Shown one piece after another: positions 1,496 through 38,858 of a DNA stretch of 64,000 nt. A program made the translations under genes and the position numbers. The stretch comes from Candidatus Aminicenantes bacterium. GTDB taxonomy: Bacteria > Acidobacteriota > Aminicenantia > Aminicenantales > Saccharicenantaceae. The notes beneath the pieces are model-generated. The model saw only the letters and a program-made list of their open reading frames with translations. It made no database searches and was not told where the DNA came from. How positions within the stretch are numbered: the first letter of the stretch is position 1; the number at the start of each line of letters is the position of its first letter. Where the stretch lies: positions 160,807 through 224,806 of the forward strand of contig JAPKZD010000018.1 in assembly GCA_026393975.1 (NCBI GenBank), in the 5' to 3' direction.

Positions 1496-1514
1496 CTTTC
1501 TCCTCACGGCCGGC

Positions 1515-9708: not shown

Positions 9709-9835
9709 GTTTGACGACTCCCTGTTCCAGAATTTATTGGCGATGCGGCGCGCGGTTCTGGGCTCATCATCGGCGAGTCCCTATCGTAACGATTTGGCCC
9801 GGAGAAAACAAGGCTTCCCGCCGGGCCCGGTCCGG

Positions 9836-12445: not shown

Positions 12446-12768
12446 GCGCTCACTCCTTTGGGGCTCTTCCCGGCCCGCGCTGATTCGATCCTTCTTTTCA
12501 GGGATGCAGCAATTCTCATGCCATAATAAAACGGTCCCTCGGGGCGGACCTGACCCTGGCGGAATAGATATATACGTCGGGACGTAACAAATGTTTACAC
12601 GCAAGCATAAATGGGCGTCCCTTTTTTTCCCCGGTTACAAATCCGGGAAAAAGGGGAGATCCAGTAAGCTAAACGCCGGCGGGGACGGTCTGGATTCAGC
12701 TTCCGGCGATTGGCGATCTTTGGGAGGAAACCTCGGTCATGTCCCCGGCCGTTACCCGGATGGGAATA

Positions 12769-26514: not shown

Positions 26515-27140
26515 CGCAGTCCGTAAACCTTGTGAAGCTGGACGGACAGGCGGATCCCGGTGAGGCCCGACCGGCCGGCGGCTTCGAGGACTTTCAGCGC
26601 TTTCTTCCGGCTCCACGGAGCGTTCGACTGGGGTTGGAGGATGATGGGCGTGGCCGGGGGGAATATCGTCCTCATGGTCCTGACCGCGTCGAGCGTCAGA
26701 GCGCGGCAGACGACGAGCTTCACTTCGCGCGCCCTCTTCGGGAATCCGGGGTGGACATCGTAGTCGGGCGGCTTGGGCGACACCGTCAGCCAGTCCGCCC
26801 CCGGCTCGGGGGGGAACGTCCCGTTCGTCTCGACCTGGACCAGGAGTCGTTCTTCGTGGAGGCGCCGCACGAGAGGGTGGACGTCCTGGGCCAGGGGCTC
26901 GCCCCCGGTCAGGCAAACCCAAGCCGCCGGAAAGCCGCGCCGGAGCCGGAGGACTTCTTCCACGATCTTTTCGACCGGCGTCTCCCGGCCGCCCCGCCAG
27001 GCTTTCTTCGTGTCGCAAAAACCGCAACGGCGGTTGCAGCCGGAGAGACGGACGAAGATCGTCGGCTCACCCTGGCGCAGGCCTTCGCCCTGAACCGAGG
27101 CGAAGATCTCAATCGTCTTCAGCGTAGGTAGCCGACGCAT
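26511..27140 (-). CDS. queE: 7-carboxy-7-deazaguanine synthase (radical SAM).
   Basis: QueE motifs FASVQGEG, IFVRLSGCNRRCGFCDT and CLTGGEPL. Confidence 0.85.
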   Translation of the reverse strand: MRRLPTLKTIEIFASVQGEGLRQGEPTIFVRLSGCNRRCGFCDTKKAWRGGRETPVEKIVEEVLRLRRGFPAAWVCLTGGEPLAQDVHPLVRRLHEERLLVQVETNGTFPPEPGADWLTVSPKPPDYDVHPGFPKRAREVKLVVCRALTLDAVRTMRTIFPPATPIILQPQSNAPWSRKKALKVLEAAGRSGLTGIRLSVQLHKVYGLR

Positions 27141-27456
27141 CCTCGGATTCCCAGACCGTCACCGACTTGACCGGGTACGTTTTCTTGAGTTCGCCGTAGA
27201 GATGGCGGGCGATGTTCTCCGCCGATGGATTGAAAGGGAAGACCTCGTTGAGGAGGGTGTGGTCGGGCAGGGCCGCGGCCAGAACCCTCTTGACCTCGGT
27301 GAAGTCGAACCCGATGCCGGTCCGGTCGAGTTCGCGGACGGTAATCTCGACCTCGACCTGGAATGTGTGGCCGTGGACCTTTTCGCACTTGCCCTTGTAT
27401 TCCTTGAGATAGTGGGCGGCCGAGAACTTGTCCCGGACCTTGAGTGTCCAGCTCAT
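27109..27456 (-). CDS. queD: 6-carboxy-5,6,7,8-tetrahydropterin synthase.
   Basis: PTPS family motifs FSAAHYL, CEKVHGHTF (CxxxHGH zinc site). Internal start MSWTLKV. Overlaps the queE 3' end. Confidence 0.85.
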   Translation of the reverse strand: MSWTLKVRDKFSAAHYLKEYKGKCEKVHGHTFQVEVEITVRELDRTGIGFDFTEVKRVLAAALPDHTLLNEVFPFNPSAENIARHLYGELKKTYPVKSVTVWESEDASATYAEDD

Positions 27457-28148
27457 CGTTGACCTTCCTTTCGAAGACGGACGAGGAGAGGGTCCTCGCG
27501 GCCGAGGGCCTTCCAGGCCCTGGCGCGAAGCCGGCAGGACGAACATGTCCCGCAGGGACGCTCCCCTCCGGCGTAACACGAGACGGAATGGGAATAGTCG
27601 GCGCCGAGGGCGAGGCCGCTCCGGATGATGTTCGCTTTGCTCAGTCCGAGGAGAGGCGCGATGATCCTCGTCTTCGGACCGCCGAAAGCGGCCTTCGTTC
27701 CCTCGTGGATGGCCCTTTCCATGGCCTTGACGAAACGCGGCGTAGTATCCGGATAGTCGGGGGAGTCGGCGACGTGGAAGCCGCAGACGAGGTCCCGGAC
27801 GCCGCGCGCTTCCGCCCAGGCGGCGGCCAGGGCGAGGAAGATGCCGTTACGGAACGGGACGTAGGTTGCGGGAGGGCCGGGCGCCTTTTTCGGCGGCCGG
27901 ACGGAGCGGGGGAGAGGGATGGCCGGGTCGGTCAGCGCCGAACCGCCGATCTGCCGCAGGTCGACCTTGAGGACGGTGTGCGCGACTCCCCGCTTGCGGG
28001 CGGCCTTCCGGGCGAGCGCGACCTCGACGCGGTGCCGCTGGCCGTAGTCGAAGGTCAGGGCGTGGACCCGGTCATAGCGGGAGAGGGCCCAGGCGAGGGC
28101 CGTGGTCGAATCGAGCCCGCCCGAAAAAAGCACTACGCAGGATGTCAC
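27453..28148 (-). CDS. queC: 7-cyano-7-deazaguanine synthase.
   Basis: QueC motifs VVLFSGGLDSTT, ALTFDYGQRH and the C-terminal zinc-cysteine cluster CGTCSSC. Likely GTG start at 28148 with a GGAGGAAAG RBS; the upstream in-frame extension in the ORF track is probably not translated. Confidence 0.85.
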   Translation of the reverse strand: MTSCVVLFSGGLDSTTALAWALSRYDRVHALTFDYGQRHRVEVALARKAARKRGVAHTVLKVDLRQIGGSALTDPAIPLPRSVRPPKKAPGPPATYVPFRNGIFLALAAAWAEARGVRDLVCGFHVADSPDYPDTTPRFVKAMERAIHEGTKAAFGGPKTRIIAPLLGLSKANIIRSGLALGADYSHSVSCYAGGERPCGTCSSCRLRARAWKALGREDPLLVRLRKEGQR

Positions 28149-28693
28149 CGCGACTTTCCTCCGACCACGATAATAATCGAGCCGGACCGGATTTTCAATA
28201 CGACCGCAACTATATGCGCCGCTCTGTCGACTGCGGAGTGGCCTCGGGCATCGTCTCCGTCCGCTGCGGTGATTCTTAACGCCTTCCCGGTCCGGATCCG
28301 GGGACATGTACCGGAGATACGCTCACTGCCGTACCTCCGGTGCGTGTCCCCCCTTCTTTCAGCCAGATCCTCTATTAAGATATTTCCTAAAAACGCGACT
28401 CCGAGTTGCTCCGTCGCGCTTTTATCGGTCGCTTCTAAGAATTCGCTCCCTGCCGCTCCCTCCGACGATACCCCTCGGCCCCTTATCCCGCAGCCTCCTC
28501 TGTGGATACCCTGCGCGGTTTGCGTGGGCTCGCTGAGGCGAGGGGTGGTGCTCCCGCCCGGAGCCGCTGATGCCGGTGAGATCTTTAGAGCGGTGAGGAC
28601 GGATGGAGGTGACACCGAGAGAGGAACCGCCCCTCGCGGCTGCCGTGCGGTTGACACCCCCGGGTCGGGATGGTATATCTTGAAATTCGAGCA

Positions 28694-29530
28694 ATGGCCG
28701 AACATCCGATCGAAAAGGGCATCGCCGATGTCGTCAGGACATACGAGCTCCTCGACCGTGTCCGCATGCGGCAGGACCTCGTCATCCGCGACGACCAGTT
28801 CGACTACGAACCCCTGCTCGACGCGGCGAAGTACGCCCGCAGGCGGCGGATCCGCCTGAGTGTTTTGGACACGGGCCGGTTCGGCCTGAACGAGCTTGAA
28901 GCGCTCGGCCGCGAAGGCGCCCGGGTCCTGACGTCGGACGAGGCCCGGCCGCGGGCCGACGAGTGGGCGATCCTCCTTGAAGCCTGCCGGGCTTCGAGGA
29001 CGTACCTGTCGGTCTTCTGGAACGGTCCTCTCCCGGCTGCGGACGGAAGCTCCGGCATCTCCCGCCAGGCCCTCGAGGGCCTTCTCGGGCACGGGATGGA
29101 TTTCCATGTCTCGAACCTGAACGTGCGGCGCGATCCCGTACTCCTGGCCGAGCTCGCGGCCGTGTCCAAGTCCGGCCGAGGCTATTTCGTCTATTACCAC
29201 CATGGACCGATCGTGGCGGAACTGTCCATGCCGGCGAGCCGGGGTGCTTGGGTCCATCTGACCGACAGCGGCTCCGCGGAGGAGGCGTGGGCCGGGCTTG
29301 CTGTCGGGGTCGCCTGCGCTGGCGCGGCGGCCGGAGCCCGGGCCGTCGTCCGCGTCGAGCGCGGCCTGCCGCTCGAACTCCTGGAGGAGCTCTGGACCGC
29401 GGGAGCCGCGCTCCTCTTCCTGACGCCGCCGAGCGACGACCGGTCCCTGCTGCGTCCGGTCGAGACGCGCGCGGCGAGACGAAAGATCCCGGCGCGCGCC
29501 TTCCATCTGTCCACGGCTTTCCTTCCCTGA
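28694..29530 (+). CDS. Hypothetical protein with no recognisable domain.
   Basis: ORF of 278 aa from MAEHPIEKG. Candidate promoter TTGACA-N17-TATATC at about 28653..28681. Codon usage is consistent with the rest of the window. Confidence 0.45.
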   Translation: MAEHPIEKGIADVVRTYELLDRVRMRQDLVIRDDQFDYEPLLDAAKYARRRRIRLSVLDTGRFGLNELEALGREGARVLTSDEARPRADEWAILLEACRASRTYLSVFWNGPLPAADGSSGISRQALEGLLGHGMDFHVSNLNVRRDPVLLAELAAVSKSGRGYFVYYHHGPIVAELSMPASRGAWVHLTDSGSAEEAWAGLAVGVACAGAAAGARAVVRVERGLPLELLEELWTAGAALLFLTPPSDDRSLLRPVETRAARRKIPARAFHLSTAFLP

Positions 29531-29568: not shown

Positions 29569-30819
29569 ATGAACGCGCATGAACTCGGGCAATCGCTGTC
29601 GCTGTGGGCCGTCGTCCCGTTCGCGGGACTTCTCCTGTCCATCGCCCTCCTTCCCCTCCGCGCGCCGCACTTCTGGGAGAACCACAAGAACAAGGCCCTC
29701 GTCGCCTTCCTCTGGTCCCTGCCCGTCGCCGTCTTCTTCCTCTTCCAGGCCCCCCACGAACTCGCCTTGTCGATGAAGGACTACTCTTCCTTCCTTCTTC
29801 TTCTCACGGCCCTGTTCATCATCTCCGGCGGCATCGTCCTCAAGGGCGACCTCAAGGCGCCCCCCGCGGTCAACACGATGTTCCTGCTCGTCGGCGCCGT
29901 TCTGGCCAATTTCATCGGCACGACCGGGGCGAGCATGCTCCTCATCCGTCCTCTCCTGCAGACTAACTCCGAGCGCCGGCGGACCCTCCACATCCCGATC
30001 TTTTTCATCTTCCTCGTCTCCAACATCGGCGGCAGCCTGACTCCGCTCGGCGACCCGCCGCTCTTCATGGGGCTCATCAAGGGCGTGCCCTTCTTCTGGA
30101 CGCTCCGGCTCTTCCCGCTCTGGGCCTTCATGGTCACCGGCGTCCTGGCCATTTTCTACGTCCTCGACCGGCACCACTACCATCGCGAGGAATGCCGCGA
30201 CCTCATCCGCGACCGGCGGCGCGTCGTCCCGCTGCACGTGACCGGGACGATCAACTTCCTCTGGATCGCCGGTGTCATCGCCGCGATCTTCCTGCCTTTC
30301 CCTCAGCGAGAGGGCGTGCTCATCCTCATGTCCGTCATGTCCCTGCTGACGACGAAGCGTCAATGCCGGACCGACAACAAATTCAACTACAACCCCATCC
30401 TCGAGGTGGCCATCCTCTTCGCCGGCATTTTCGTCACCATGATCCCGGCCCTGCTCATCCTCAACGCCCGCGGCGCCGATCTCGGCCTCACCCAACCGTG
30501 GCATTTCTTCTGGGCCTCCGGCTCCCTGTCGTCCTTCCTCGACAACACGCCGACCTACCTGGCCTTTTTCTCCATGGCCCAGGGCCTCGGGCTGAACGGC
30601 GACATGATGGGCATCCCGTCGATCTTCCTCAAGGCTATCAGCGCCGGCGCTGTCTTCATGGGCGCGAACTCCTACATCGGCAACGGCCCGAACTTCATGG
30701 TCAAGGTCATCGCCGAGGAATACAAGCTGAAGATGCCCTCGTTCTTCGGCTACATGGCCTACTCCTGCGCCGTTCTCATCCCGCTCTTCATCGTCGTCAC
30801 GCTCGTCTTTTTCAGGTAA
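29569..30819 (+). CDS. ArsB/NhaD-superfamily ion transporter (putative Na+/H+ antiporter or citrate-transporter-like permease).
   Basis: Twelve or more predicted TM helices. Family-typical segments GGSLTPLGDPP and GANSYIGNGPNFMV. Confidence 0.7.
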   Translation: MNAHELGQSLSLWAVVPFAGLLLSIALLPLRAPHFWENHKNKALVAFLWSLPVAVFFLFQAPHELALSMKDYSSFLLLLTALFIISGGIVLKGDLKAPPAVNTMFLLVGAVLANFIGTTGASMLLIRPLLQTNSERRRTLHIPIFFIFLVSNIGGSLTPLGDPPLFMGLIKGVPFFWTLRLFPLWAFMVTGVLAIFYVLDRHHYHREECRDLIRDRRRVVPLHVTGTINFLWIAGVIAAIFLPFPQREGVLILMSVMSLLTTKRQCRTDNKFNYNPILEVAILFAGIFVTMIPALLILNARGADLGLTQPWHFFWASGSLSSFLDNTPTYLAFFSMAQGLGLNGDMMGIPSIFLKAISAGAVFMGANSYIGNGPNFMVKVIAEEYKLKMPSFFGYMAYSCAVLIPLFIVVTLVFFR

Positions 30820-30991
30820 GAATCATCAGGACCCCGCCATGATTTCCACTCTCGCCGCGGCGCAAGTTCCGTGCCGTTCCTCTTCGTCCGCCGGTTTTGA
30901 GAAACGGGTACGCCGGGACGGATTGACACCACTAATGGTGCGGGCTGGGCGCCGTCCTACAAAGAAAAGTGGTCGACCGGTAAGAAAAAAA

Positions 30992-31019
30992 CTTGACATT
31001 TGGTCAGAATGGTCTATAA
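30992..31019 (+). promoter_or_regulatory. Sigma70-like promoter (TTGACA-N16-TATAAA) upstream of the ATP-grasp/GNAT/KamA operon.
   Basis: Exact -35 TTGACA at 30992-30997 and -10 TATAAA at 31014-31019, in an AT-rich intergenic region about 70 nt upstream of the ATG at 31090 (RBS GAAGGAA). Confidence 0.5.
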
Positions 31020-31089
31020 ATGAAAATGAATTAAATGATCACGGCCATCGGAAATTACGAAGGCTTGAGTTGAAAGAAGGAATAGAGCG

Positions 31090-32199
31090 ATGAAAGTAGC
31101 ATTGCTTTTCAGTTCGAAAGCGGGGATGGAAGCGACGCTCTCTCATCGCCCCGACGAGCGACACGACGAGGAAGACGAGCCCCCATCGCCAGTCGACCTG
31201 TTCGCGGAATGCGATTCGGACGAAACGATCGCGGCCGTCGGGCGGGTGCTCCAGGAACGGCACCAGGTTGTCTTCATCGAATCCGATGAGAAGGCCTACG
31301 CGCGCCTGAAGCGCCAGCGCCCCCATCTCGTCTTCAACATCGCCGAGCGCGTCGTCGGCCCGAACCGCGAATCCCACATCCCGACGATCTGCGAGATGCT
31401 GGACATCCCCTACACCGGCTCCGACCCGCTGACCCTCGGACTCTGCCTCGACAAGTCGCGGGCCAAGGAGATCCTGTCTTACCACAGGATCCCGAACCCG
31501 GCCTTCTGGATCGTCGAGTCCGCGGCCGGCATCCCGGCCGGCATCCGGCTCCCGGCCATCGTCAAGCCCCTCTTCGAGGGGTCGAGCAAGGGCATCAAGA
31601 ACAACTCCCTCGTCCACAGCCTGGGCGACCTCTACGAGCGCGTGGAGGAGGTCATCGCGGCCTACAACCAGCCGGTAATCGTCGAGCGTTTCCTCTCCGG
31701 CCGCGAGTTCACCGTCGGCGTCCTCGGAAACACTCCGAACCATGAGATCCTGCCCATCGTTGAGATCGACCACGGCCAGCTGCCCTCCGGGGCGGCGCCG
31801 ATCTATTCCTACGAGGCGAAGTGGGTTTGGGACACGCGGGAAAAACCCCTCGACATTTTCAAGTGCCCGGCGCCCGTCAGCCCGGTACTCAAGGCCAAGA
31901 TCGAGAACTTCGTCACGCGGACCTGCGCCGTGCTTCGCATCCGGGACTGGTGCCGGGTCGACATCCGGCTCGACGAAAAAGGAGAGCCCAACATCCTCGA
32001 GGTCAACCCGCTGCCGGGCATCCTGCCCAACCCCGAGGACAATTCCTGCCTGCCCAAGGCGGCCCGGACGGCCGGGTATTCCTATTCGGACCTGATCCAC
32101 AAGGTCGTCGAGGAGGCCTCGAAACGGTACGGCCTCCGTCCCACGCGCATCCGGCCTGCGGCGAGCGAGCGGCCGGCGGTCCTCGCGGATCGCGTATGA
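31090..32199 (+). CDS. D-alanine--D-alanine ligase-family ATP-grasp enzyme (paralog 1).
   Basis: Ddl-like N-domain plus ATP-grasp motifs (LPAIVKPLFEGSSKGI, EREFTVGVLG, C-terminal ILEVNPLPGI). Confidence 0.75.
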   Translation: MKVALLFSSKAGMEATLSHRPDERHDEEDEPPSPVDLFAECDSDETIAAVGRVLQERHQVVFIESDEKAYARLKRQRPHLVFNIAERVVGPNRESHIPTICEMLDIPYTGSDPLTLGLCLDKSRAKEILSYHRIPNPAFWIVESAAGIPAGIRLPAIVKPLFEGSSKGIKNNSLVHSLGDLYERVEEVIAAYNQPVIVERFLSGREFTVGVLGNTPNHEILPIVEIDHGQLPSGAAPIYSYEAKWVWDTREKPLDIFKCPAPVSPVLKAKIENFVTRTCAVLRIRDWCRVDIRLDEKGEPNILEVNPLPGILPNPEDNSCLPKAARTAGYSYSDLIHKVVEEASKRYGLRPTRIRPAASERPAVLADRV

Positions 32200-33230
32200 A
32201 TCCTGCCCCACATATCGCCATCGTTTTCAACGCCTACGAACCGAGACCGACGGCGACGGGCGAGCGTCTGTCCGAAGAGTCCGTGGCCGAGATGGCCCAG
32301 CAGACGCACGACGCCGTCCGCACGCTCGGGATCGAGGCGACGCTCATCCCCCTCCAGAGGAGCCTCCTCAATTTCCTGGGACGCGTCCGCGAGCTCAATC
32401 CCGACGTTCTGATCAACCTCTGCGAAGGGTACTACGGCCGGCCGCAGTGGGAGTCGAACGTCGCCGGCATCTTCGAGCTCCTCGGCCTCGCGTTCACCGG
32501 GAGCGCCGCCAAAACCCTGGCCTTCTGCCAGGACAAGTTCAAGGCCAAGGCCGTCCTCCGGGCCGCCGGCCTGCCCACGGCCCCGGCCCAGCTCATGCTG
32601 ACGGGGGACGAACCCCTCGAGCTGAAATTCCCGCTCATCGTCAAGCCGAACGCCGAGGACGCCAGCCTGGGCATCTACCCGGACTCCGTCGTCCGCGACG
32701 AGGAGTCCTTCCGCCGGCAGGTCCGGCGTTGCCTCGACAACTACAAGCAGCCGGTCCTCGTCGAAGCGTTCATCGATGGCCGGGAGTTCAACGTCTCGGT
32801 CCTGGAGAACGGCGCGGTGGCGCCCCTGCCGGTCTCCGAGATCGATTTCTCGGCCATGCCCAAGGACCTGCCGCGCATCCTCGGTTACGAAGCCAAGTGG
32901 TTCGAAGACAATCCGCTCTATCAAAAGACGCCCCCGGTCTGCCCGGCGCCCATCGACGAGGAGCTCCGTGCCAAGCTCCAGGGCCAGGCCGCCGCCGCGT
33001 TCCGGATCATGGGCTGCCGGGACTACGCCCGGGTCGATTTCCGGATGGACGCCAAGGGCCGGCCGTTCATCCTCGAGGTCAATCCGAACCCCGACATCAG
33101 CACCAACGCCGGCTATGCCCGGGCCCTCAAAGCGGGCGGGATCGCCTACGCTTCGTTCTGGGGCACGATGATCGAAAACGCCCTTGGGAGAAGAGTCGTC
33201 CATGATCCGACCGATGGAACCGCGCGATAA
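32196..33230 (+). CDS. D-alanine--D-alanine ligase-family ATP-grasp enzyme (paralog 2).
   Basis: ATG overlaps the upstream stop (ATGA). Motifs FPLIVKPNAEDASLGI, GREFNVSVLE, ILEVNPNPDIS. Confidence 0.75.
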   Translation: MNPAPHIAIVFNAYEPRPTATGERLSEESVAEMAQQTHDAVRTLGIEATLIPLQRSLLNFLGRVRELNPDVLINLCEGYYGRPQWESNVAGIFELLGLAFTGSAAKTLAFCQDKFKAKAVLRAAGLPTAPAQLMLTGDEPLELKFPLIVKPNAEDASLGIYPDSVVRDEESFRRQVRRCLDNYKQPVLVEAFIDGREFNVSVLENGAVAPLPVSEIDFSAMPKDLPRILGYEAKWFEDNPLYQKTPPVCPAPIDEELRAKLQGQAAAAFRIMGCRDYARVDFRMDAKGRPFILEVNPNPDISTNAGYARALKAGGIAYASFWGTMIENALGRRVVHDPTDGTAR

Positions 33231-33675
33231 GGAACCGGTCATGGACCTCATCCGGGCGACCGGATTTTTCATGCCCGCCGAGGTCGAGGTGGCCGAGGAG
33301 CTCATCGACGTCTATCTCGAGGATCCGGAGCAGAAAGACTATCGCATTGTCGTTGTCGAGAACGACCAGAAGGACGCCGTGGGCTACCTGACGTGGGGGC
33401 CGACGCCGCTCGCCGAGGACGCCTACGACTTGTACTGGATGGCCGTCGCGCCGTCCGAGCAGGGCAAGGGGCGGGGCAAGATGCTTGTCCGCTGGCTCGA
33501 GGACGAGGTCGGCCGGCGCGACGGACGGATGATCATCATCGAGACGTCGTCGCAGCCGAAGTACCACGGCACGAGGCAGTTTTATATCGACTTGGACTAT
33601 AAAGAAGTCGCCCGGATCCCGGATTATTACCGGGCCGGGGACGACCGCGTCATCTACGCGAAGTATTTTCGCTGA
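33202..33675 (+). CDS. GNAT-family N-acetyltransferase.
   Basis: GNAT acetyl-CoA-binding motif QGKGRGKMLVRWLEDE. Overlaps the 3' end of ATP-grasp paralog 2. Confidence 0.7.
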   Translation: MIRPMEPRDKEPVMDLIRATGFFMPAEVEVAEELIDVYLEDPEQKDYRIVVVENDQKDAVGYLTWGPTPLAEDAYDLYWMAVAPSEQGKGRGKMLVRWLEDEVGRRDGRMIIIETSSQPKYHGTRQFYIDLDYKEVARIPDYYRAGDDRVIYAKYFR

Positions 33676-33692
33676 CAAGGAGTTTCGAGGAG

Positions 33693-34805
33693 ATGGACGA
33701 CTGGCAACGCTTGCTCCAGGGCAGTCTCCGGAAACCGGAGGAGATCGCCCGACGTTTCGGACTGGATGTCGAGGAGGTCCGCCGGATCGCCCGCGTTTTC
33801 AAGATCCAGATCACGCCGTATTACGCTGGTTTGATCAAGGAGCGCGGCGACGCGATGTGGCGCCAACTGGTGCCCGACCCGGCCGAATTGAAGGAAAATA
33901 CCGGGGAAACGGATCCCCTCCAGGAGGACAGGGACTCGCCCGTGCAGAGCATCGTCCACCGCTACCCCGACCGCTGCCTCTTCCTGGTTTCGCACAGCTG
34001 CGCCTCGTACTGCCGTTTCTGTACGCGCAAGAGAAAGGTCGGAGACGTGTCGAAGATCCACCCCCGGTACATCGAGGACGGCCTCGCCTACATCCGGAAC
34101 CATTCGGAGATCCGGGACGTCGTCATTTCGGGCGGCGACCCGCTCATGCTGAGCGACCGCAAGCTCGAGGCGATCATCAAGGGCGTCCGGGCCATCCCTC
34201 ACGTCGAGATCATCCGTGTCGGCACGCGCGTCCCTTGTGTCCTGCCGCAGCGGGTCACGGAAAAGCTCGTGGCCATGCTCCGCAAGTACCATCCGCTTTA
34301 TGTCAACGTCCACTTCAACCACCCCGACGAGATCACGCCGGAATCGTCGCGCGCCCTGAATTTGCTGGCCGACGCCGGCATCCCGCTGGGGAACCAGACC
34401 GTGCTCCTCAAAGGCGTCAACGACGACCCGCTGGTCATGCGCCGGCTCATGCAAAAGCTCCTCTCGGTCCGGGTCCGGCCCTACTACATCTACCAGGCGG
34501 ACTACGTTTCGGGCACCGAGCACCTGAGGACGACGGTCGAAAAGGGACTCGAGATCATGGAGGCCCTGCGGGGCTGGACGTCGGGGCTGGCCGTCCCGTA
34601 TTACTGCATCGACGCGCCCGGGGGCGGCGGCAAGATTCCGGTCCTTCCGAAGTACCTCCAGTCGATCACCGACGAGCAGGTCGTCCTGCGGAATTACGCC
34701 GGCGAGCTCTTCGTCTACCCGCAGGTGAAGCCGAAGCCGAAGCGCAAACCACGTCCGGCGATCGCTCCCTGCTATAGCTTCGACGGCGCCCCCCCCATGC
34801 CATAA
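33693..34805 (+). CDS. KamA-family radical SAM lysine 2,3-aminomutase.
   Basis: CASYCRFCTRK (CxxxCxxC of KamA), ISGGDPL, and the PLP-binding region. About 370 aa. Confidence 0.85.
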   Translation: MDDWQRLLQGSLRKPEEIARRFGLDVEEVRRIARVFKIQITPYYAGLIKERGDAMWRQLVPDPAELKENTGETDPLQEDRDSPVQSIVHRYPDRCLFLVSHSCASYCRFCTRKRKVGDVSKIHPRYIEDGLAYIRNHSEIRDVVISGGDPLMLSDRKLEAIIKGVRAIPHVEIIRVGTRVPCVLPQRVTEKLVAMLRKYHPLYVNVHFNHPDEITPESSRALNLLADAGIPLGNQTVLLKGVNDDPLVMRRLMQKLLSVRVRPYYIYQADYVSGTEHLRTTVEKGLEIMEALRGWTSGLAVPYYCIDAPGGGGKIPVLPKYLQSITDEQVVLRNYAGELFVYPQVKPKPKRKPRPAIAPCYSFDGAPPMP

Positions 34806-34812
34806 GCGGTCA

Positions 34813-34877
34813 AAAAGAAGGTACCAGGTCTCCGCACTGCCAATTTTGGCATTGCGTAGACCTGGTACCTTCTTTTT
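34813..34877. repeat. 65-bp near-perfect palindrome (left flank of the Y1 transposase gene).
   Basis: AAAAAGAAGGTACCAGGTCTCCGCACTGCCAA-TTTTGGCATTGCGTAGACCTGGTACCTTCTTTTTT. The arms are complementary with two mismatches. Same core as the palindrome at 35896..35955. Confidence 0.8.
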
Positions 34878-35821
34878 TAGGGGGGAAGACGACGCTCAAT
34901 TTCGCCGACGGTGCGAGCCAACGTATCGTTGTGAATGAGCTCTTTTCGTATCCGGCGACAAATATCCGTTATTCCGGAAACTCCTAATTGGAAGAACTCT
35001 CCAATCTCTTTGAGCGTGTAATCGGTATCCTTATGGCTGATAAATATCGAGAGATTTCGAGTGAACCTGTTTTTTGAGCCAAGGGACGATTCTGTAGCTG
35101 CGAATATTTGTTCTAGCCCCGGCCGGGGAAAGAGCTTACGGAGTTGAGGTAGGTCTCGAACTGGATGTGCATTTGTATCTGACAGGAATGATTTCCTGAT
35201 CCGTTCGGTGAAGTCGGCATTTCCAAGTATTCCGGTTTGCCTTGCCGCCTCGAGGGGGCTCGGCAGATTTTGGGACAAACGCCAAATAATATGCTCTTCG
35301 TAATTGTTCCTCGCCTCGGCCAGGGACGTCCCGAACAGGCGAAGAACGAACGAGTTAGTCGTCCATGGTTGTGGCGCCGCTATCCCTAAAAATTCACGGT
35401 AATTAGACCAGACGTAATCTTCGGGACGGTTAACGATCCTGGCCCGAACCGGATTAAGGTGGATATAGGGCGCGAGCTCCCGCGCATATTCCTCTGCTTG
35501 AACTAAGATCGCCGTAAATCGAGATTGGAAAGTATGCCCACAGCGGTCATGTTTCAGGTTGAAGTAGCTTGAATACCTCATGTTGATCAAGTGCATGATC
35601 CTAGAAAGCTGGCCCTGAGGTGTTTCAAGAAAAAGATGGTAGTGATTCTCCATCAGGCAATAAACATGTATGACAACGCCTAACTTTTCATGGGCATCTC
35701 TTAAGCAATTAAGGAAGAAATATCTATCCTCATCGGCGAGAAAGATTGGCAGTCTTCTATTCCCTCGAGAGGTCACATGATAGAACGCGCCCGGGAATTC
35801 GATTCTCAGAGGTCTCGCCAT
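34877..35821 (-). CDS. IS200/IS605-like (REP-associated, RAYT-type) Y1 tyrosine transposase with a C-terminal extension.
   Basis: HuH-Y1 motifs FYHVTSRGNRRLPIF and HVYCLMENHYHLFLE. C-terminal region resembles DnaA-C-like HTH extensions seen in some RAYT/IS200-like proteins. Confidence 0.75.
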   Translation of the reverse strand: MARPLRIEFPGAFYHVTSRGNRRLPIFLADEDRYFFLNCLRDAHEKLGVVIHVYCLMENHYHLFLETPQGQLSRIMHLINMRYSSYFNLKHDRCGHTFQSRFTAILVQAEEYARELAPYIHLNPVRARIVNRPEDYVWSNYREFLGIAAPQPWTTNSFVLRLFGTSLAEARNNYEEHIIWRLSQNLPSPLEAARQTGILGNADFTERIRKSFLSDTNAHPVRDLPQLRKLFPRPGLEQIFAATESSLGSKNRFTRNLSIFISHKDTDYTLKEIGEFFQLGVSGITDICRRIRKELIHNDTLARTVGEIERRLPP

Positions 35822-35895: not shown

Positions 35896-35955
35896 AAGAA
35901 GGTACCAGGTCTACGCAATGCCAATTTTGGCATTGCGTAGACCTGGTACCTTCTT
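35896..35955. repeat. 60-bp perfect palindrome (right flank of the Y1 transposase gene).
   Basis: AAGAAGGTACCAGGTCTACGCAATGCCAA-TT-TTGGCATTGCGTAGACCTGGTACCTTCTT. Confidence 0.85.
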
Positions 35956-35961
35956 ATTTTC

Positions 35962-38058
35962 TTATTTAAGGGAAGCGAGGTAGGCGCTGAGGCCGACGGC
36001 CTTGACGATGTCGAGCGTTTCTTCCCGGCTGATGCCGCGTTTCTGCTTCAGCGACTCCAGGATGCGGACGATGGAAAAAGCGACCTCGGCCGTCTGCCCC
36101 GCCTCGGCCTGCCGGTCCTTGAGGTAGGCGATGGAATCGAAAAGGACGGCGTTGGCCTCGCCGTAGGATATCGGCTCGCGCCCGCCGTTCGCCTTAACCC
36201 AATCGGCCAGCCCCAGAATGTCGTTCACGTGCGACTGGATGAGATACGTGGCCCGGCCGACGAGCTTGAGGTTGCTGGGGCTGACGTTGGTCATGGTATT
36301 GCCGACGACCTTGCCGAGCTTGGCCATGACGGCCGTCGAATGGGCATTGAGGAGCATCTTGGCCGCGATCTGCTGCCGCAGGCCGAACGGGTCGCCCGTC
36401 GCCCGGACATGGACGGGGACCACGATGAGCCTGCCGCTCCGCCCCTCGAACAGACGCCGGATTCCCGCCTCTAACTGCGGGTATTCCTTCTGCGGACGGT
36501 CGGTGACCAGAACGACCGCCGCATCGGCGCCGCTTTCCCCGGCGAGCCGTAGGACCTTCCCGAATGACGACCCTTCGCGCCCGAACTCGCTCTCCTCGGG
36601 CATCAGGCCGACCAGGACGCATAAGTCTCCCTTCTTCGGGCCGCGCCGCTCCAAGTTCGATGCGGAAAGTGAAAAATCGTAGAGCTCCGCCTGGTCGTCC
36701 CCGGCCTTCTTCAGGCTCTCGAGCGCTGCCCGCCGCAGGTAGGGATCGTCGATGCCCGTTTCGAACGCCGGCCTGTACTTCTCGGACGCCAACCCGCGGA
36801 AGGGCCTGCCCAGAAAAGCGCGCCAGGCGTCGCCGGCTGTCTTCGCCCCCGTCCAGACCTGGATCCAGCATTTCCGCTGCGGCTCCCTGACGGTGTCCAG
36901 CGGGAAGAGCCGGAACGTCGGGCTCCGTTCCGTGCTGTCGATGAAGACCGTGATCAGCCCTTTTTCGGCGTAGTATGTTGAGAACCGTCCGCCCGCGTAA
37001 GCCGCCGCCTCGATGTCGGTCAACGGTGCGAGAGCCGGGAGCGCCGCCCGCGCCCCCTCGAGGACGCCGCCGAACTCGCTGAGCTTCGCCGCGACCCCCG
37101 CTCGTTCCGCTCCGCCGCCGTCCTCAAAACCGAACCGAACCATCTCGTTCTCCCCGAGGAAACGGGCCAGGGCCCGGCCCACAGCCGTCTCGATGACGGC
37201 GGCCACGACATAGGTCTCGATGGTCGTGGCCTGCATCCGCGTCGAGCCGGTGATGGCCTGGGGCCCGGTCGTCAGGTTGATCTTGGTGATGCCCGGCTCA
37301 GTCAGGACGCTACGGCTCCGGTCGAAGGGCAGGAGCCTGTCGTCCGGGTTGTTGTAGACGAAGTACAGCCGCTTGCGGCTCTCTCCGGGGCTGTATCCCG
37401 GCTCGCCCTTCCACTCGTCGAGCGCGGCCAGGACCGTCCCGATGACCGACGACGTCTCGCCGCCCTCGGTGACGCAGATGACGACGTCGCCCTTGCGGAT
37501 ACCCCTGTCATGGAGCTGCAGGCGGCCGATGAGCTGGAGGTCCTCGAAGCCCTCGAGGGAGCTGATCAAGGCCCTGTCCGCCCCGGTCATCTCGCCGATG
37601 AGGGCATCCTCGACGCCCTCCGGAATGCGGCCGGCGAGCTTCGCCGCGATCTTTCTGTCTGCCTTCACCCTCCGCCAAAAGGGACGCCAGAACGTGCTCT
37701 CCATCTGCTTGGCCAGCCGGCCCGTGGCCCCGCAACCGTAAACATAGATCTTCCTGCCGCCGAGGATGGCGTCCTCGACGGCCCGGGCGGCTTGCTCGAG
37801 GACCGCGGGCGCCGCCGCCAGTTCCTCCAATTTTGCCCGGATATCGTCGTCGACCGAAGACAGCATCTTCAGGCCGGCCAGCGTGTCCTTCTGGATGCGC
37901 TCGCCGAGGGGCCACGTTTTCTGATGGCGCTGCTCCGTGAGCAAGGCATGGAGCTGGAACTGCGTTTTCGTCCGGACGTAATCGACGGATTCCGCGGAAG
38001 GCTCGACCCCGAGCAACTTGAGAAGATTCCCCTTTGCATCCCCTGTTTCTTGCGTCAT
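35962..38058 (-). CDS. Double-SIS-domain protein of the GCKR/MurQ (glucokinase regulator / MurNAc-6-P etherase) family.
   Basis: Internal start MTQETGDAKG at 38058. GCGATGRLA SIS phosphosugar-binding signature and a second SIS-like half. About 699 aa. Confidence 0.65.
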   Translation of the reverse strand: MTQETGDAKGNLLKLLGVEPSAESVDYVRTKTQFQLHALLTEQRHQKTWPLGERIQKDTLAGLKMLSSVDDDIRAKLEELAAAPAVLEQAARAVEDAILGGRKIYVYGCGATGRLAKQMESTFWRPFWRRVKADRKIAAKLAGRIPEGVEDALIGEMTGADRALISSLEGFEDLQLIGRLQLHDRGIRKGDVVICVTEGGETSSVIGTVLAALDEWKGEPGYSPGESRKRLYFVYNNPDDRLLPFDRSRSVLTEPGITKINLTTGPQAITGSTRMQATTIETYVVAAVIETAVGRALARFLGENEMVRFGFEDGGGAERAGVAAKLSEFGGVLEGARAALPALAPLTDIEAAAYAGGRFSTYYAEKGLITVFIDSTERSPTFRLFPLDTVREPQRKCWIQVWTGAKTAGDAWRAFLGRPFRGLASEKYRPAFETGIDDPYLRRAALESLKKAGDDQAELYDFSLSASNLERRGPKKGDLCVLVGLMPEESEFGREGSSFGKVLRLAGESGADAAVVLVTDRPQKEYPQLEAGIRRLFEGRSGRLIVVPVHVRATGDPFGLRQQIAAKMLLNAHSTAVMAKLGKVVGNTMTNVSPSNLKLVGRATYLIQSHVNDILGLADWVKANGGREPISYGEANAVLFDSIAYLKDRQAEAGQTAEVAFSIVRILESLKQKRGISREETLDIVKAVGLSAYLASLK

Positions 38059-38339
38059 CCCCGTCGCGACCAACGTCACGATAGCCGCTACAGCCGCTGC
38101 CGCCCTGCCTCTCCCTCCGAGTTCCTTATTCCTCCTCTCTTTTGGTTCTTCTCCTATTAAAGCGGAAGTCCTCCGTCGGGCGGCGATGGATATCGCCCCG
38201 ACGACCCCCGTAGCGGAGGGGGACCCATCGTTTGCGATGGGGGGACCGTCGGGACAGGTTCCCGGGGGGGCCGGGGGGCTAGGGGGGATATCCTTTGCCG
38301 AGCCGAAAAGGAGAGTTCCGCGAAATTGGGAGAAGAACC

Positions 38340-38858
38340 TCACTCGTCTTTCCCGTATTGATGTTCGTCGTCGAGGATGTCGCGCTCCTGCCAATCCCGG
38401 ATCCACTCCTCGACCCGGAAGACCATGGTTCCGCCGTCGGCCGTCGAGCAGACGACCCGGTCGAGGCCGCAGTTGATCAGCATCTTTTTGCAGATGTAGC
38501 AGGGGAAGGCGTCGATCGGCGCGCTCCCGCCCGGGGCGCTGCCGTAGATGTACATGTTTCCCCCGAGCAGGCTGACGCCCGCCCGGGCGGCGTTGATGAT
38601 GGCGTTCTGCTCGGCGTGGACGCTGCGGCAGAGCTCGTAGCGCTGGCCGTGGGGGATGCCCAGCCGGTCGCGCAGGCAGAAGCCGTGCTCGAGGCTGTCG
38701 CGGGTCTTGCGCGGGGCGCCGACGTAGCCCGTCGAGATGATCTGGTCGTCACGGACGACGATGGCTCCGATCGTTCTCCGGAAGCAGGTGCTCCGGAGCG
38801 AGACTTCCTTGGCGATGCCCAGATAGTAAAGGTCCTTGGGCGTTCTCGGCGGCGTCAT
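38340..38858 (-). CDS. Deoxycytidylate (dCMP) deaminase.
   Basis: CMP/dCMP deaminase zinc motifs HAEQNAI and PCYICKKML. Confidence 0.8.
   Translation of the reverse strand: MTPPRTPKDLYYLGIAKEVSLRSTCFRRTIGAIVVRDDQIISTGYVGAPRKTRDSLEHGFCLRDRLGIPHGQRYELCRSVHAEQNAIINAARAGVSLLGGNMYIYGSAPGGSAPIDAFPCYICKKMLINCGLDRVVCSTADGGTMVFRVEEWIRDWQERDILDDEHQYGKDE

Follow-up and report, generated by a model that had tools for sequence, protein, structure and literature searches.

Four co-directional genes in an Aminicenantes genome, lying within a window of 64 kb (the whole stretch of DNA that was analysed), encode two ATP-grasp ligases (lig1 and lig2), a GNAT acyltransferase and a KamA-family aminomutase, and raise the question of which compound such a set of enzymes would build. 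We posit that they form a self-contained small-molecule pathway leading to an N-capped beta-lysine di- or tri-amide, a reading to which we assign a probability of roughly 60%. Our literature search found no papers on this widespread, uncharacterized module.

Layout and regulation of the operon

The original prediction described genes with overlapping or abutting junctions, and our analysis confirmed from the sequence that the four genes constitute one operon with its own phylogenetically footprinted promoter and a strong end hairpin (Table 1). The lig2 start, read directly in the sequence, is the ATG at 32196 within an ATGA stop/start overlap, through which lig2 is predicted to be translationally coupled to lig1. 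The 5' end of the GNAT gene overlaps the 3' end of lig2 by 29 nt. Its ATG at 33202 is preceded by the Shine-Dalgarno-like stretch GGGAGAAG, and the alternative longest ORF would start at TTG 33184 and encode 163 aa. The KamA gene begins 17 nt past the GNAT stop and has a GGAG ribosome-binding site.

Table 1. Features of the operon and its flanks, with positions in the window and predicted assignments
Feature	Position	Strand	Size or composition	Assignment
Operator-like block GACACCACTAATGGTG	30925-30940	+	imperfect palindrome CAC-N8-GTG	conserved, 5' of promoter
Operator-like block CTACAAAGAAAAGTGGTCG	30957-30975	+	A-tract inside	conserved, 5' of promoter
Sigma70-type promoter	30993-31020	+	-35 TTGACA 30993-30998; 16-nt spacer; -10 TATAAA 31015-31020	
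lig1	31090-32199	+	369 aa	Ddl-fold ATP-grasp amide ligase (Pfam Dala_Dala_lig_C)
lig2	32196-33230	+	344 aa	second Ddl-fold ATP-grasp ligase (Pfam Dala_Dala_lig_C)
GNAT	33202-33675	+	157 aa	N-acyltransferase (Pfam Acetyltransf_1/7)
KamA	33693-34805	+	370 aa	KamA-family radical-SAM/PLP aminomutase (Pfam Radical_SAM + LAM_C)
REP-like hairpin	34812-34878	.	long palindromic hairpin, then U-run	probable operon terminator

The sigma70-like promoter proposed upstream of the genes proved real, and both of its hexamers are the same in all 17 Aminicenantes species aligned; a consensus promoter scan did not return it because the scanner accepts a -10 element only if its sixth base is T. The two operator-like blocks are nearly invariant in the same alignment. 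An 84-aa ORF that overlaps them showed no conservation as a protein, which indicates that the conservation of these blocks is regulatory. Expression of the Aminicenantes operon would be regulated through the sigma70 promoter and the conserved operator-like sites, and that of the Desulfovibrionaceae and Calditrichaceae cassettes via sigma54 and an enhancer-binding protein. The terminator hairpin folds with -48.3 kcal/mol (z = -9.15). Its 24-nt arm is found four times, flanking a Y1/RAYT transposase gene (34877-35821, minus strand).

The layout also bears on whether the cassette might produce a microviridin-like graspetide, that is, a RiPP for which two ATP-grasp macrocyclases and an N-acetyltransferase would act on a precursor peptide, with radical-SAM tailoring. 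Two ATP-grasp genes plus a GNAT are indeed the microviridin architecture, but the gene junctions are too tight for a precursor gene, the one small ORF upstream shows no conservation at the protein level, and neighbourhood clustering of ORFs of at least 80 aa gave no conserved small gene. The ligases are moreover of Ddl type and not of RimK type, and KamA retains its free-lysine binding residues, which together make a graspetide extremely improbable.

The encoded enzymes

The two ligases had been described as Ddl-family paralogs outside a cell-wall setting, and this holds: they are 35% identical to each other, and the 64-kb window contains no murF/ftsZ context, no further ddl and no efp. The ATP/Mg ligands of DdlB are all invariant across about 80 orthologues of each ligase, and an AF2 model of lig1 (moderate, pLDDT 74.7) resembles Ddl structures that share about 25% sequence identity with it. 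Between phyla, lig1 retains 52-96% identity. The possibility that they are bona fide D-Ala-D-Ala ligases had been named as a caveat of the original prediction. Their NCBIfam Ddl scores (168 for lig1 and 148 for lig2) lie far below the cut-off of 243, and D-Ala-specific residues are replaced. Y216 (DdlB numbering), the residue deciding between D-Ala2 and D-Lac, is W in both ligases and in all ~160 orthologues. Aligned with DdlB, lig1 further shows L282 to C and a 4-aa insertion beside S281, and lig2 shows S150 to A, G276 to D, S281 to A and L282 to G; lig1 also has E at the position aligned with H63, in alignments whose N-terminal (site 1) part is unreliable. On account of the sub-cut-off scores, the Y216W exchange and the remodelled D-Ala2 site, we regard both proteins as Ddl-fold ATP-grasp enzymes without true D-Ala-D-Ala ligase character.

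That the pair might be ordinary or spare peptidoglycan ligases of the D-Ala-D-Ala or D-Ala-D-X type, with KamA and GNAT adjacent by coincidence, is suggested by their best sequence and fold matches, by the database name D-alanine-D-alanine ligase and by the title of a GNAT homologue, PDB 2R7H ('putative D-alanine N-acetyltransferase'). It has next to no probability in view of the substitutions above, the ~25% identity to DdlB, the absence of a mur/fts context, the conserved synteny with KamA and the existence of KamA fusions.

The GNAT carries a QGKGRG acyl-CoA motif and resembles 2R7H with an E value of 8e-31. An AblB-type model is absent among its NCBIfam hits at E <= 0.01, and no YodP- or EctA-level match was found for it; the original prediction had already remarked on its small size. 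AblB and YodP are about twice the size of this protein. Its best NCBIfam match is RimI, a weak one (35 bits vs a cut-off of 86).

[quoted passage not shown] The protein scores above the TIGR00238 cut-off but under the equivalog cut-offs for AblA, Glu-, Arg- and EpmB, with 468 bits on the AblA model (cut-off 525; the KamA of locus L058 scores 521) and 227 on the EpmB model (cut-off 369). Since the catalytic and lysine-binding residues are retained, we strongly infer a lysine 2,3-aminomutase with beta-lysine as the expected product, in agreement with the original prediction.

Conservation, fusions and the link to polyamine genes

A search for the four genes together, which had been suggested as a check, showed the set to be conserved across phyla. 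The arrangement lies far beyond chance expectation: the same order occurs in most of 160 loci from genomes and metagenomes. At evaluable lig1 loci, lig2 adjoins lig1 in 77/80, GNAT co-occurs in 72/80 and KamA in 71/80; the loci were picked by lig1 similarity, so that these proportions describe lig1 neighbourhoods and not genomes. The synteny survey recovered loci in Aminicenantes, Verrucomicrobiota, Kryptonia, Lentisphaerae, Calditrichota, Bacteroidota, Ignavibacteriota, Desulfuromonadales, Planctomycetota and Nitrospinae, and the cassette is also present in Desulfovibrionaceae. Archaea and ten or more named bacterial groups keep it, sometimes in fused form. Cultured carriers include Desulfuromusa kysingii DSM 7343 (L076) and Desulfovibrio mangrovi (L164). 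Not all four genes are required at every locus, since GNAT is missing at some (L106, L110) and only KamA and lig1 are visible at others (L120, L131). Recurrent neighbours are a third ATP-grasp protein, methyltransferases and GNAT-HDAC deacetylases; in some lineages a methyltransferase stands in place of, or beside, GNAT, with a GNAT-HDAC deacetylase adjoining.

Gene fusions join the same partners. KamA-lig1 fusions (P0253, P0324 and more than 100 clusters at 90% identity, many of them in Thermoplasmatota, Methanocellales, Woesearchaeota and Nanoarchaeota) are accompanied by a fusion in reverse order (lig1-KamA, P0338), 17 or more naturally occurring lig1-lig2 fusions and fusions of lig2 to GNAT (P0383, P0389), and one archaeal locus holds the whole module in two genes, KamA-lig and lig-GNAT. 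Many fusion proteins are only 33-45% identical to those of the window, and their function could have diverged. The lig1-lig2 fusions strengthen the earlier suggestion that two ligations follow each other or that the ligase is heteromeric, and the KamA-lig1 fusions the suggestion that beta-lysine feeds the ligases.

In the pathway that we propose, KamA would convert L-lysine to beta-lysine. For every step past beta-lysine formation we infer the following: beta-lysine would be passed directly to lig1; lig1 and lig2, catalytically competent but with remodelled substrate sites and acting as a pair either in a complex or sequentially, would each use ATP to form a single amide bond by way of an acyl-phosphate; and GNAT would transfer an acyl group, probably acetyl, to a free amine on the product or on an intermediate and so cap it. 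More speculatively, with the alignment to E. coli DdlB as the sole basis, lig1 retains the serine that binds the incoming amino acid by its carboxylate and would use an amino acid such as beta-lysine as nucleophile, and lig2, which has lost this serine and gained an Asp, may use a carboxylate-free amine. The core cassette encodes no source of the second or third building block.

A minority of loci combine the same ligase pair with a pyruvoyl arginine decarboxylase (PvlArgDC or ADC), with or without SpeY/SpeB. The order SpeY-SpeB-PvlArgDC-lig1-lig2 is found in L053 and L056, with overlapping junctions, and in L083 and L084, and is partly visible in L082 and L085-L090; four loci (L073, L092, L095, L115) show SpeY-PvlArgDC-ATPgrasp3-lig1-lig2-GNAT, and L058 unites ADC and KamA in one operon (PvlArgDC-lig2-GNAT-KamA-lig1). 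Polyamine genes occur at ~9/80 evaluable loci and come from few lineages, so that part of the link could be lineage synteny. SpeY, SpeB and ADC form an experimentally shown homospermidine route, in which SpeY makes free homospermidine (PMC13625781). Because the unchanged ligase pair sits in ADC and SpeY/SpeB operons, agmatine or a polyamine is the probable partner amine, unless the compound itself acts as a polyamine-like cation. The links to arginine decarboxylase, homospermidine, the third ATP-grasp, methyltransferases and GNAT-HDAC deacetylases move the expected chemistry closer to cationic amides that resemble polyamines.

The same loci allow another reading, in which the ligase pair accepts different cationic amines and joins each of them to one shared cellular carboxylate, such as an acidic amino acid. 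KamA-type operons would supply beta-lysine as the amine, and SpeY/ADC-type operons agmatine or homospermidine. On this view beta-lysine would act solely as a nucleophile, and the KamA module and the polyamine module would replace each other and not belong to one pathway. Most loci indeed have KamA or ADC/SpeY and seldom both, KamA is absent within 8 kb of SpeY/ADC-type (type A) operons, and the extra acidic pocket residues (lig1 E at H63, lig2 D at G276) suit cationic substrates. Such a mechanism would however lead one to expect context-dependent pocket positions; between the two operon types no strongly conserved lig1 position differs, and lig2 shows six mild differences, all outside the catalytic motifs. 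L058 holds both ADC and KamA, and the KamA-lig1 fusions are compatible with either role of beta-lysine. We consider interchangeable amines unlikely.

A third possibility is that the ligases put beta-lysine or a polyamine on a carboxylate or amine of a macromolecule, such as a translation factor or ribosomal protein, in the manner of EpmA/EpmB on EF-P, RimK on S6 or RimI on S18. The modifications of EF-P and IF5A depend on two types of enzyme, KamA relatives (EpmB) and DHS relatives (SpeY), and both kinds are linked to this ligase pair. RimI is the top, though weak, NCBIfam match of GNAT, and the conservation of lig1 (52-59% identity across phyla) is unusually high for a secondary-metabolite enzyme. 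We nevertheless judge protein modification very unlikely: every above-cut-off ligase match is to a Ddl-type model, lig2 reaches 19.7 bits on Pfam TTL against a cut-off of 20.1, neither ligase matches RimK, KamA is far under the EpmB cut-off, neither efp nor any other gene for a possible target recurs in the neighbourhoods, and the homospermidine made by SpeY is free.

The osmolyte NAGGN of other bacteria is made by a GNAT paired with an ATP-grasp enzyme. Together with the ablAB logic of a KamA plus an acetyltransferase and the proximity of KamA to the AblA cut-off, this would suit the compatible solute that the original prediction had considered, with KamA and GNAT producing N-epsilon-acetyl-beta-lysine or a peptide derivative; ablAB is cited as salt-induced in methanogens (PMC3543383, PMC9337991). 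We found no specific support for it. Riboswitches (Na+, c-di-AMP, other) were found neither in the window nor in 19 loci, and the hosts are largely non-saline, belonging mostly to freshwater, soil, groundwater and sediment lineages and including peat and lake-sediment MAGs. Both ligases are at least as conserved in the module as GNAT, which is small (157 aa) and has no AblB-type model among its hits at E <= 0.01, and the polyamine-gene and sigma54 links do not indicate osmotic control, so we regard an AblAB-like osmolyte as unlikely. The original interpretation stands for the operon, the ligases, KamA and the synteny, where none of the refuting conditions that it had named came out against it, but not for the osmolyte, and it missed the polyamine links, which could not be seen from the window.

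Comparison with known systems

With DdlA/DdlB and the VanA family the ligases share the fold and the ATP/Mg2+ catalytic residues, and would hence share the acyl-phosphate amide-ligase chemistry. They differ in being only ~25% identical to these enzymes and in forming a conserved heterologous pair, often fused, outside a cell-wall context. AblA/AblB and B. subtilis KamA/YodP likewise have a lysine 2,3-aminomutase adjoining a GNAT, with beta-lysine as the expected intermediate. Here, in contrast, the core includes two ATP-grasp ligases, one of which even occurs fused to KamA; the window KamA has no C-terminal Zn/Cys region, no salt-related regulation is visible, and no AblB-type model is among the hits of the window GNAT at E <= 0.01. 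In EpmA/EpmB, too, a KamA-family enzyme feeds beta-lysine to an ATP-dependent ligase (for EF-P beta-lysylation), but the window ligase is an ATP-grasp enzyme and not a LysRS paralogue, KamA falls short of the EpmB model, and no efp linkage was seen.

The structural-genomics entry 2R7H (Oleidesulfovibrio/Desulfovibrio) is a close GNAT homologue within the same cassette, whose locus reads sigma54 activator, KamA, ligase, ligase, GNAT. It differs in that KamA comes first and in that its ligases are 29-35% identical to those of the window. The entry has no assigned function, and the citing literature we found concerns an unrelated Salmonella toxin.

The NAGGN (Ngg: GNAT + ATP-grasp; AsnO) and NAAG (N-acetylation, RimK-like ligase) pathways combine a GNAT with an ATP-grasp enzyme to give an N-acetylated di-amide, and the lig2-GNAT fusions resemble the domain arrangement of Ngg. 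The Ngg model TIGR03103 is matched weakly by the accessory third ATP-grasp and is not among the NCBIfam hits listed for GNAT or for the ligases (for the latter the best 25 of 35-41). The cassette has no amidotransferase and takes beta-lysine as its amino-acid input. In trypanothione synthesis, two paralogous ATP-dependent amide ligases, glutathionylspermidine synthetase and trypanothione synthetase, act sequentially on a polyamine scaffold. The analogy is functional only. Here a paralogous pair of a different ATP-grasp subfamily is joined to homospermidine operons, glutathione genes are absent, and beta-lysine is supplied by KamA.

Organization and control of the operon

The prediction of four co-directional, overlapping or abutting genes behind a sigma70-like promoter was borne out, coordinates included (see table). 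The stop of lig1 and the start of lig2 lie within a common ATGA, the GNAT gene starts 29 nt inside lig2 and is preceded by a GGGAGAAG stretch, and kamA starts 17 nt past the GNAT stop with GGAG in front. The promoter consists of TTGACA and TATAAA hexamers separated by 16 nt, and was not listed by the pattern scanner because the latter requires a T at the last -10 position. Both hexamers are invariant in an upstream-region alignment of 17 Aminicenantes species, in which two more upstream blocks, GACACCACTAATGGTG and CTACAAAGAAAAGTGGTCG, are conserved. A hairpin of 67 nt with a perfect stem, ahead of a U-run, starts 6 nt past the kamA stop (-48.3 kcal/mol, z = -9.15) and is the likely terminator. 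Given the overlapping or close junctions, the operon's own promoter and this hairpin, lig1 to kamA make up a single transcription unit. No conserved fold was found in the 5' UTR of the operon. An 84-aa ORF overlapping the promoter region was considered as a RiPP precursor peptide and rejected, being conserved as DNA only and not as protein.

Promoter types differ among carriers. Sigma54-type promoters precede the cassette in Desulfovibrio mangrovi and Calditrichaceae (TGGCAT-N5-TTGCT; TGGCAC-N5-TTGTA), while the window has a sigma70 promoter instead. Palindromes of the form CGGAAC-N6-GTTCCG (GCGGAAC-N6-GTTCCGC) are found before the cassette in D. mangrovi and in the Oleidesulfovibrio-like locus L162, beside a sigma54 activator gene. 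Upstream of lig1 the Calditrichaceae carry genes for a histidine kinase and for a sigma54 regulator, and promoters of sigma54-like type are present as well.

Several flanking features were also recorded. Downstream, two nearly identical long palindromes bracket the gene of a REP-associated tyrosine transposase (RAYT); the 24-nt palindrome arm GGTACCAGGTCTNCGCANTGCCAA occurs 4 times against 0 expected, and the first palindrome coincides with the likely terminator. A relative with 78% identity (L001) carries a RAYT gene at the equivalent place and a 779-aa counterpart of the SIS-like protein. The que trio just upstream is present in L001 too, together with queF, and its linkage to the cassette is lineage-specific. 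The protein unk286 (32-83% identity) recurs immediately ahead of lig1, or ahead of an inserted CitMHS_2 gene, in many Aminicenantes loci, and it is not kept outside this group. We excluded unk286 and CitMHS_2 from the system, since their conservation does not extend beyond Aminicenantes and the operon is served by a promoter of its own.

Features of the window and of loci fetched from other genomes or metagenomes (L-numbers)
Locus	Feature	Position	Strand	Remarks
Window	queE-queD-queC-like trio	26511-28307	-	7-cyano-7-deazaguanine synthesis
Window	unk286	28670-29530	+	286 aa; no Pfam/NCBIfam match
Window	CitMHS_2 transporter gene	29569-30819		
Window	Operator-like blocks	30925-30975		Upstream of -35 box; one imperfect palindrome CAC-N8-GTG, other with A-tract
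Window	TTGACA	30993-30998		Operon promoter
Window	TATAAA	31015-31020		Operon promoter
Window	lig1	31090-32199	+	369 aa; Pfam Dala_Dala_lig_C
Window	lig2	32196-33230	+	344 aa; Pfam Dala_Dala_lig_C
Window	GNAT	33202-33675	+	157 aa; Pfam Acetyltransf_1/7
Window	KamA-family radical-SAM protein	33693-34805	+	370 aa; Pfam Radical_SAM + LAM_C
Window	Palindrome	34812-34878		Also likely terminator
Window	RAYT (Y1_Tnp)	34877-35821	-	NCBIfam REP_Tyr_transpos 83 bits, cut-off 80
Window	Palindrome	35901-35950		
Window	SIS-like protein	35962-38406	-	814 aa; weak SIS / MurNAc-6-P etherase-like matches at C-terminal part only; long low-complexity N-terminus
L164	Sigma54-type promoter/palindrome site	5457-5472		
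L066	Sigma54-type promoter/palindrome site	about 4260		
L075	Sigma54-type promoter/palindrome site	about 7885		
L162	Sigma54-type promoter/palindrome site	5250-5480		
L040	Third ATP-grasp	11691-12626		
L044	Third ATP-grasp	9627-10562		
L073	Third ATP-grasp	5173-6093		
L066	Third ATP-grasp	200-1141		
L075	Third ATP-grasp	3805-4719		
L035	lig1 directly followed by KamA	8001-10315		Aminicenantes-like MAG
L106	Cys-rich protein between lig1 and lig2	978-1619		213 aa; CxxCxxCxxxCC motifs
L165	Distant lig1 relative	207279-208289		pNGR234a

Residue conservation in the four enzymes

The radical-SAM protein is a KamA-family member and a predicted lysine 2,3-aminomutase, in line with its original assignment. 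It passed the family model TIGR00238 (292.2 bits, cut-off 199.2) and aligned to the Clostridium subterminale lysine 2,3-aminomutase (2A5H) with an E-value of 2.7e-112, keeping C125, C129 and C132 of the CxxxCxxC Fe-S motif and the PLP lysine K337. R134, D293 and D330 of 2A5H are all conserved as well; we take R134 to bind the alpha-carboxylate and D293 and D330 the epsilon-ammonium of lysine. C268 is replaced by D, and the C-terminal Zn/Cys cluster is missing. Scores remained below the cut-offs of the models for AblA (TIGR03820; 467.7, cut-off 525.4), glutamate 2,3-aminomutase (TIGR04368; 427.9, cut-off 650), arginine 2,3-aminomutase (TIGR04468; 350.5, cut-off 600) and EpmB (TIGR03821; 226.8, cut-off 369.3). 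The protein is closest to AblA, yet in a clade of its own.

The ligases are Ddl-family paralogs outside a cell-wall context, as the original prediction held. No mur, fts or ddl context was found in the window, where the neighbours are the que genes, the CitMHS_2 transporter, the RAYT transposase and the SIS-domain protein, and no locus inspected has mur or fts neighbours. The two proteins share 35% identity with each other and about 25% with solved Ddl structures, which are the top sequence matches of both; an AF2 model of lig1, the only ligase modelled (pLDDT 74.7), matched Ddl structures only. With the NCBIfam Ddl models PRK01372 and TIGR01205, lig1 scored 168.3 and 133.1 bits and lig2 148.4 and 137.6 bits, below the curated cut-offs of 243 and 245.65, and the orthologues in L053 likewise missed the family cut-off.

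For a comparison of residues, about 80 orthologues per ligase were aligned to E. coli DdlB, an alignment that is unreliable at E15 of the E15-S150-Y216 triad. K97, K144, E180, E187, K215, R255, D257 and N272 (DdlB numbering) are invariant in both families, and E270 is kept in all but one orthologue, with D in one lig2 sequence. Y216 is replaced by W in every aligned sequence of either family, and both ligases have an [A/C]-E-[G/R] motif at the position of His63. While lig1 keeps S150 and S281, with L282 replaced by C and a 4-residue insertion adjoining, lig2 has A, D, A and G in place of S150, G276, S281 and L282. The conserved ATP/Mg2+ and transition-state residues, together with the altered D-Ala site, argue that both enzymes are active in amide ligation but differ from Ddl in their substrate sites; the catalytic residues do not mean Ddl specificity. 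Conserved D-Ala-specific residues had been named among the observations that would refute the idea, and genuine D-Ala-D-Ala ligases were rejected on the sub-cut-off scores and the replaced active-site residues. The database label 'D-alanine-D-alanine ligase' is almost certainly wrong for these proteins.

The GNAT matched Acetyltransf_1 and Acetyltransf_7 above threshold and has the acyl-CoA loop QGKGRG (Q/RxxGxG/A type). It is a close homologue of PDB 2R7H (E 8e-31), so far the module's single solved structure and a structural-genomics entry titled 'putative D-alanine N-acetyltransferase of GNAT family', a name that we consider almost certainly incorrect. NCBIfam matches at E <= 0.01 were all weak (RimI, AAC(6'), EctA, MshD), and AblB was absent among them, assuming that its model is in the searched set.

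These results bear on the compatible-solute function that had been suggested for the operon, which would make it a variant of the AblAB-type osmolyte pathway. Against this idea, the GNAT lacks a match to an AblB-type model and the ligases are core members of the module. Moreover, Rfam searches of the region ahead of the operon, run in E-value mode for the window and extended to 19 diverse loci, detected no riboswitch or leader RNA, osmotic riboswitches included, and the hosts are mostly non-saline. We therefore regard an osmolyte pathway as unlikely.

Spread, fusions and polyamine genes

The nearest lig1 relatives are from Candidatus Aminicenantes and Acidobacteriota MAGs (70-96% identity). 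A lig1 profile scan of one genome per GTDB species confirmed >597 loci, and we continued with the 80 best of these; 80 further loci came from metagenomes, scanned with distant lig1 sequences as seeds. By tblastn with the window proteins, the order lig1-lig2-GNAT-KamA was found in Aminicenantes, Verrucomicrobiota, Kryptonia, Lentisphaerae, Calditrichota, Bacteroidota, Ignavibacteriota, Planctomycetota and Desulfuromonadales, the last including the cultured Desulfuromusa kysingii DSM 7343. Nitrospinae have the cassette in rearranged order, and in the Oleidesulfovibrio/Desulfovibrio clade from which 2R7H derives a sigma54 activator gene is followed by those of KamA, two ligases and the GNAT. Across phyla, identity to the window protein was 57-72% for KamA, 51-59% for lig1, 35-47% for lig2 and 36-54% for the GNAT. 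Conservation of the neighbourhood, which had been proposed as a check, was evident: among 80 loci with enough DNA flanking lig1, lig2 lay beside it in 77, the GNAT in 72 and KamA in 71.

Some loci deviate from this pattern. L035 lacks lig2 and the GNAT and represents a deletion variant or an assembly artefact, and the metagenome locus L106, with its Cys-rich insertion, is also without a GNAT. Distant lig1 relatives (about 33-36% identity), annotated as 'ATP-grasp domain-containing protein', occur on rhizobial symbiosis plasmids. In NGR234 the gene (about 34% identity) adjoins a CapA-family gene, and such relatives are present on 13 more plasmids, of which 12 are rhizobial. These probably belong to a different system and are too distant to inform on this one.

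An exhaustive HMMER search with lig1 against 1.84 billion cluster representatives gave 1030 matches at E <= 1e-30. Among the top 150, which were inspected for fusions, we found KamA-lig1 (P0253, P0324), lig1-KamA (P0338) and lig2-GNAT (P0383, P0389) proteins, and at least 17 lig1-lig2 fusions with the domains in gene order, from which a lig1/lig2 heteromer would be expected. A search with P0253 retrieved KamA-ligase fusion proteins in >100 clusters (90% identity), with Thermoplasmatota, Methanocellales, Woesearchaeota and Nanoarchaeota accounting for many of these. The genes around these fusions supply the missing parts: one version consists of two genes, [KamA-lig] and [lig-GNAT], while [KamA-lig] is accompanied by lig and GNAT in a Methanocellales MAG, by lig in a woesearchaeote and by two lig genes in a deltaproteobacterium. 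That every adjacent pair of activities is fused somewhere is strong evidence that the activities serve one pathway in which beta-lysine would be handed directly to the first ligase.

In a minority of lig1 loci the ligase pair is part of a polyamine-type operon; the window contains no SpeY/SpeB/ADC homospermidine module. L053 and L056 encode, with overlapping junctions, a DHS-like SpeY, an arginase-fold ureohydrolase, a pyruvoyl arginine decarboxylase, lig1, lig2 and a methyltransferase, and the first three proteins of L053 were confirmed by Pfam (DS, Arginase, PvlArgDC). By tblastn, this order recurs in full in L083 and L084 and in part in L082 and L085-L090. L073, L092, L095 and L115 encode, in sequence, SpeY, PvlArgDC, a RimK/LysX-like third ATP-grasp, lig1, lig2 and the GNAT, with a methyltransferase fused to the GNAT or placed after it in L073 and L095, and the Nitrospinae locus L058 has PvlArgDC, lig2, GNAT, KamA, lig1. 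Experiments have established that SpeY, together with arginine decarboxylase and a ureohydrolase, makes homospermidine in an agmatine-dependent manner, with N1,N9-bis(guanidino)homospermidine as the intermediate (PMC13625781). The third ATP-grasp (about 305-313 aa) is located near the cassette in unrelated lineages, directly after KamA in L040 and L044 and upstream in Calditrichaceae, a hint that the oligo-amide may be longer in these carriers. A GNAT-HDAC gene resembling acetylpolyamine amidohydrolases flanks the cassette in Calditrichaceae, Desulfuromusa and several metagenome loci, and is an extra gene of the cassette in D. mangrovi.

Between KamA-type and SpeY/ADC-type operons, no lig1 position was strongly conserved within each type yet different between them, and lig2 showed six mild, non-catalytic differences only. 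The chemistry is therefore most likely the same in both, which favours one joint pathway using both beta-lysine and an arginine-derived amine. Alternatively, the two could be interchangeable substrates of the ligase pair, against which stands the same near-absence of positions that separate the operon types.

Proposed pathway and comparison with known systems

The conserved residues argue strongly that KamA converts lysine to beta-lysine. Each ligase would then form one amide bond via an acyl-phosphate, a chemistry indicated by the catalytic residues, with putative substrates. From the DdlB alignment we tentatively propose an amino acid as the incoming substrate of lig1, which retains the carboxylate-binding Ser; lig2, without that Ser and with Asp at 276, would fit a cationic amine that has no carboxylate, for instance agmatine or a polyamine. 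The GNAT, or a methyltransferase in some lineages, would cap an amino group, and the adjoining HDAC-type enzyme may remove the cap. On chemical reasoning, masking of the epsilon-amine ahead of carboxylate activation could avert self-cyclisation. The predicted product is an N-capped beta-lysyl di- or tri-amide that may have agmatine or homospermidine at its end.

A bolder reading, to which we give a probability of roughly 0.3, is that the module makes an unrecognised class of amide-linked polycations, namely beta-lysyl oligo-amides with agmatine or homospermidine as their base or terminus ('pseudo-polyamines'). If so, their role could be polyamine-like housekeeping (nucleic-acid or ribosome binding, nitrogen storage) and not osmoprotection. 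The module is widespread among anaerobic bacteria from many phyla and occurs in a number of archaeal lineages. Modification of a protein, EF-P or a target of RimK-like ligation, is improbable: no target gene recurs near the cassette, and the above-threshold ligase matches are all of Ddl type. The link to EF-P in particular was rejected, with no efp gene in the window or in any neighbourhood inspected and the EpmB model unmatched. A graspetide/microviridin RiPP was discarded in view of the missing conserved small ORF, the overlapping gene junctions and ligases that are Ddl-type and not RimK-like.

In full-text searches we found neither a description of the module nor an assigned function, an earlier in-silico mention being possible, and it is absent from both the G20 transposon paper and the DvH sigma54 regulome. 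Iyer et al. (2009, Mol Biosyst) reportedly surveyed the gene contexts of ATP-grasp amidoligases. The enzyme families and their chemistry are known, while the combination, its breadth and the link to polyamine genes appear to be undescribed; its physical linkage to genes for arginine decarboxylase and homospermidine synthesis points to a branch of polyamine-type metabolism that is still unexplored. Cultured carriers of the module are D. kysingii DSM 7343, D. mangrovi and the Oleidesulfovibrio/Desulfovibrio source of 2R7H, and its function is therefore open to genetics and metabolomics.

In bacteria and archaea, beta-lysine is known mainly from three settings: as the precursor of one osmolyte, in the modification of EF-P and in a few actinomycete antibiotics. 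N-acetyltransferases of the AblB/YodP type have about 270-290 aa, from which the window GNAT differs in its much smaller size and in its model matches. In graspetide clusters a precursor gene adjoins RimK-like ATP-grasp macrocyclases, whereas the window cassette has neither. The cassette represents a different, presumably beta-lysine-consuming module, repeatedly fused and distributed over at least ten named bacterial groups as well as Thermoplasmatota, Methanocellales and DPANN archaea.
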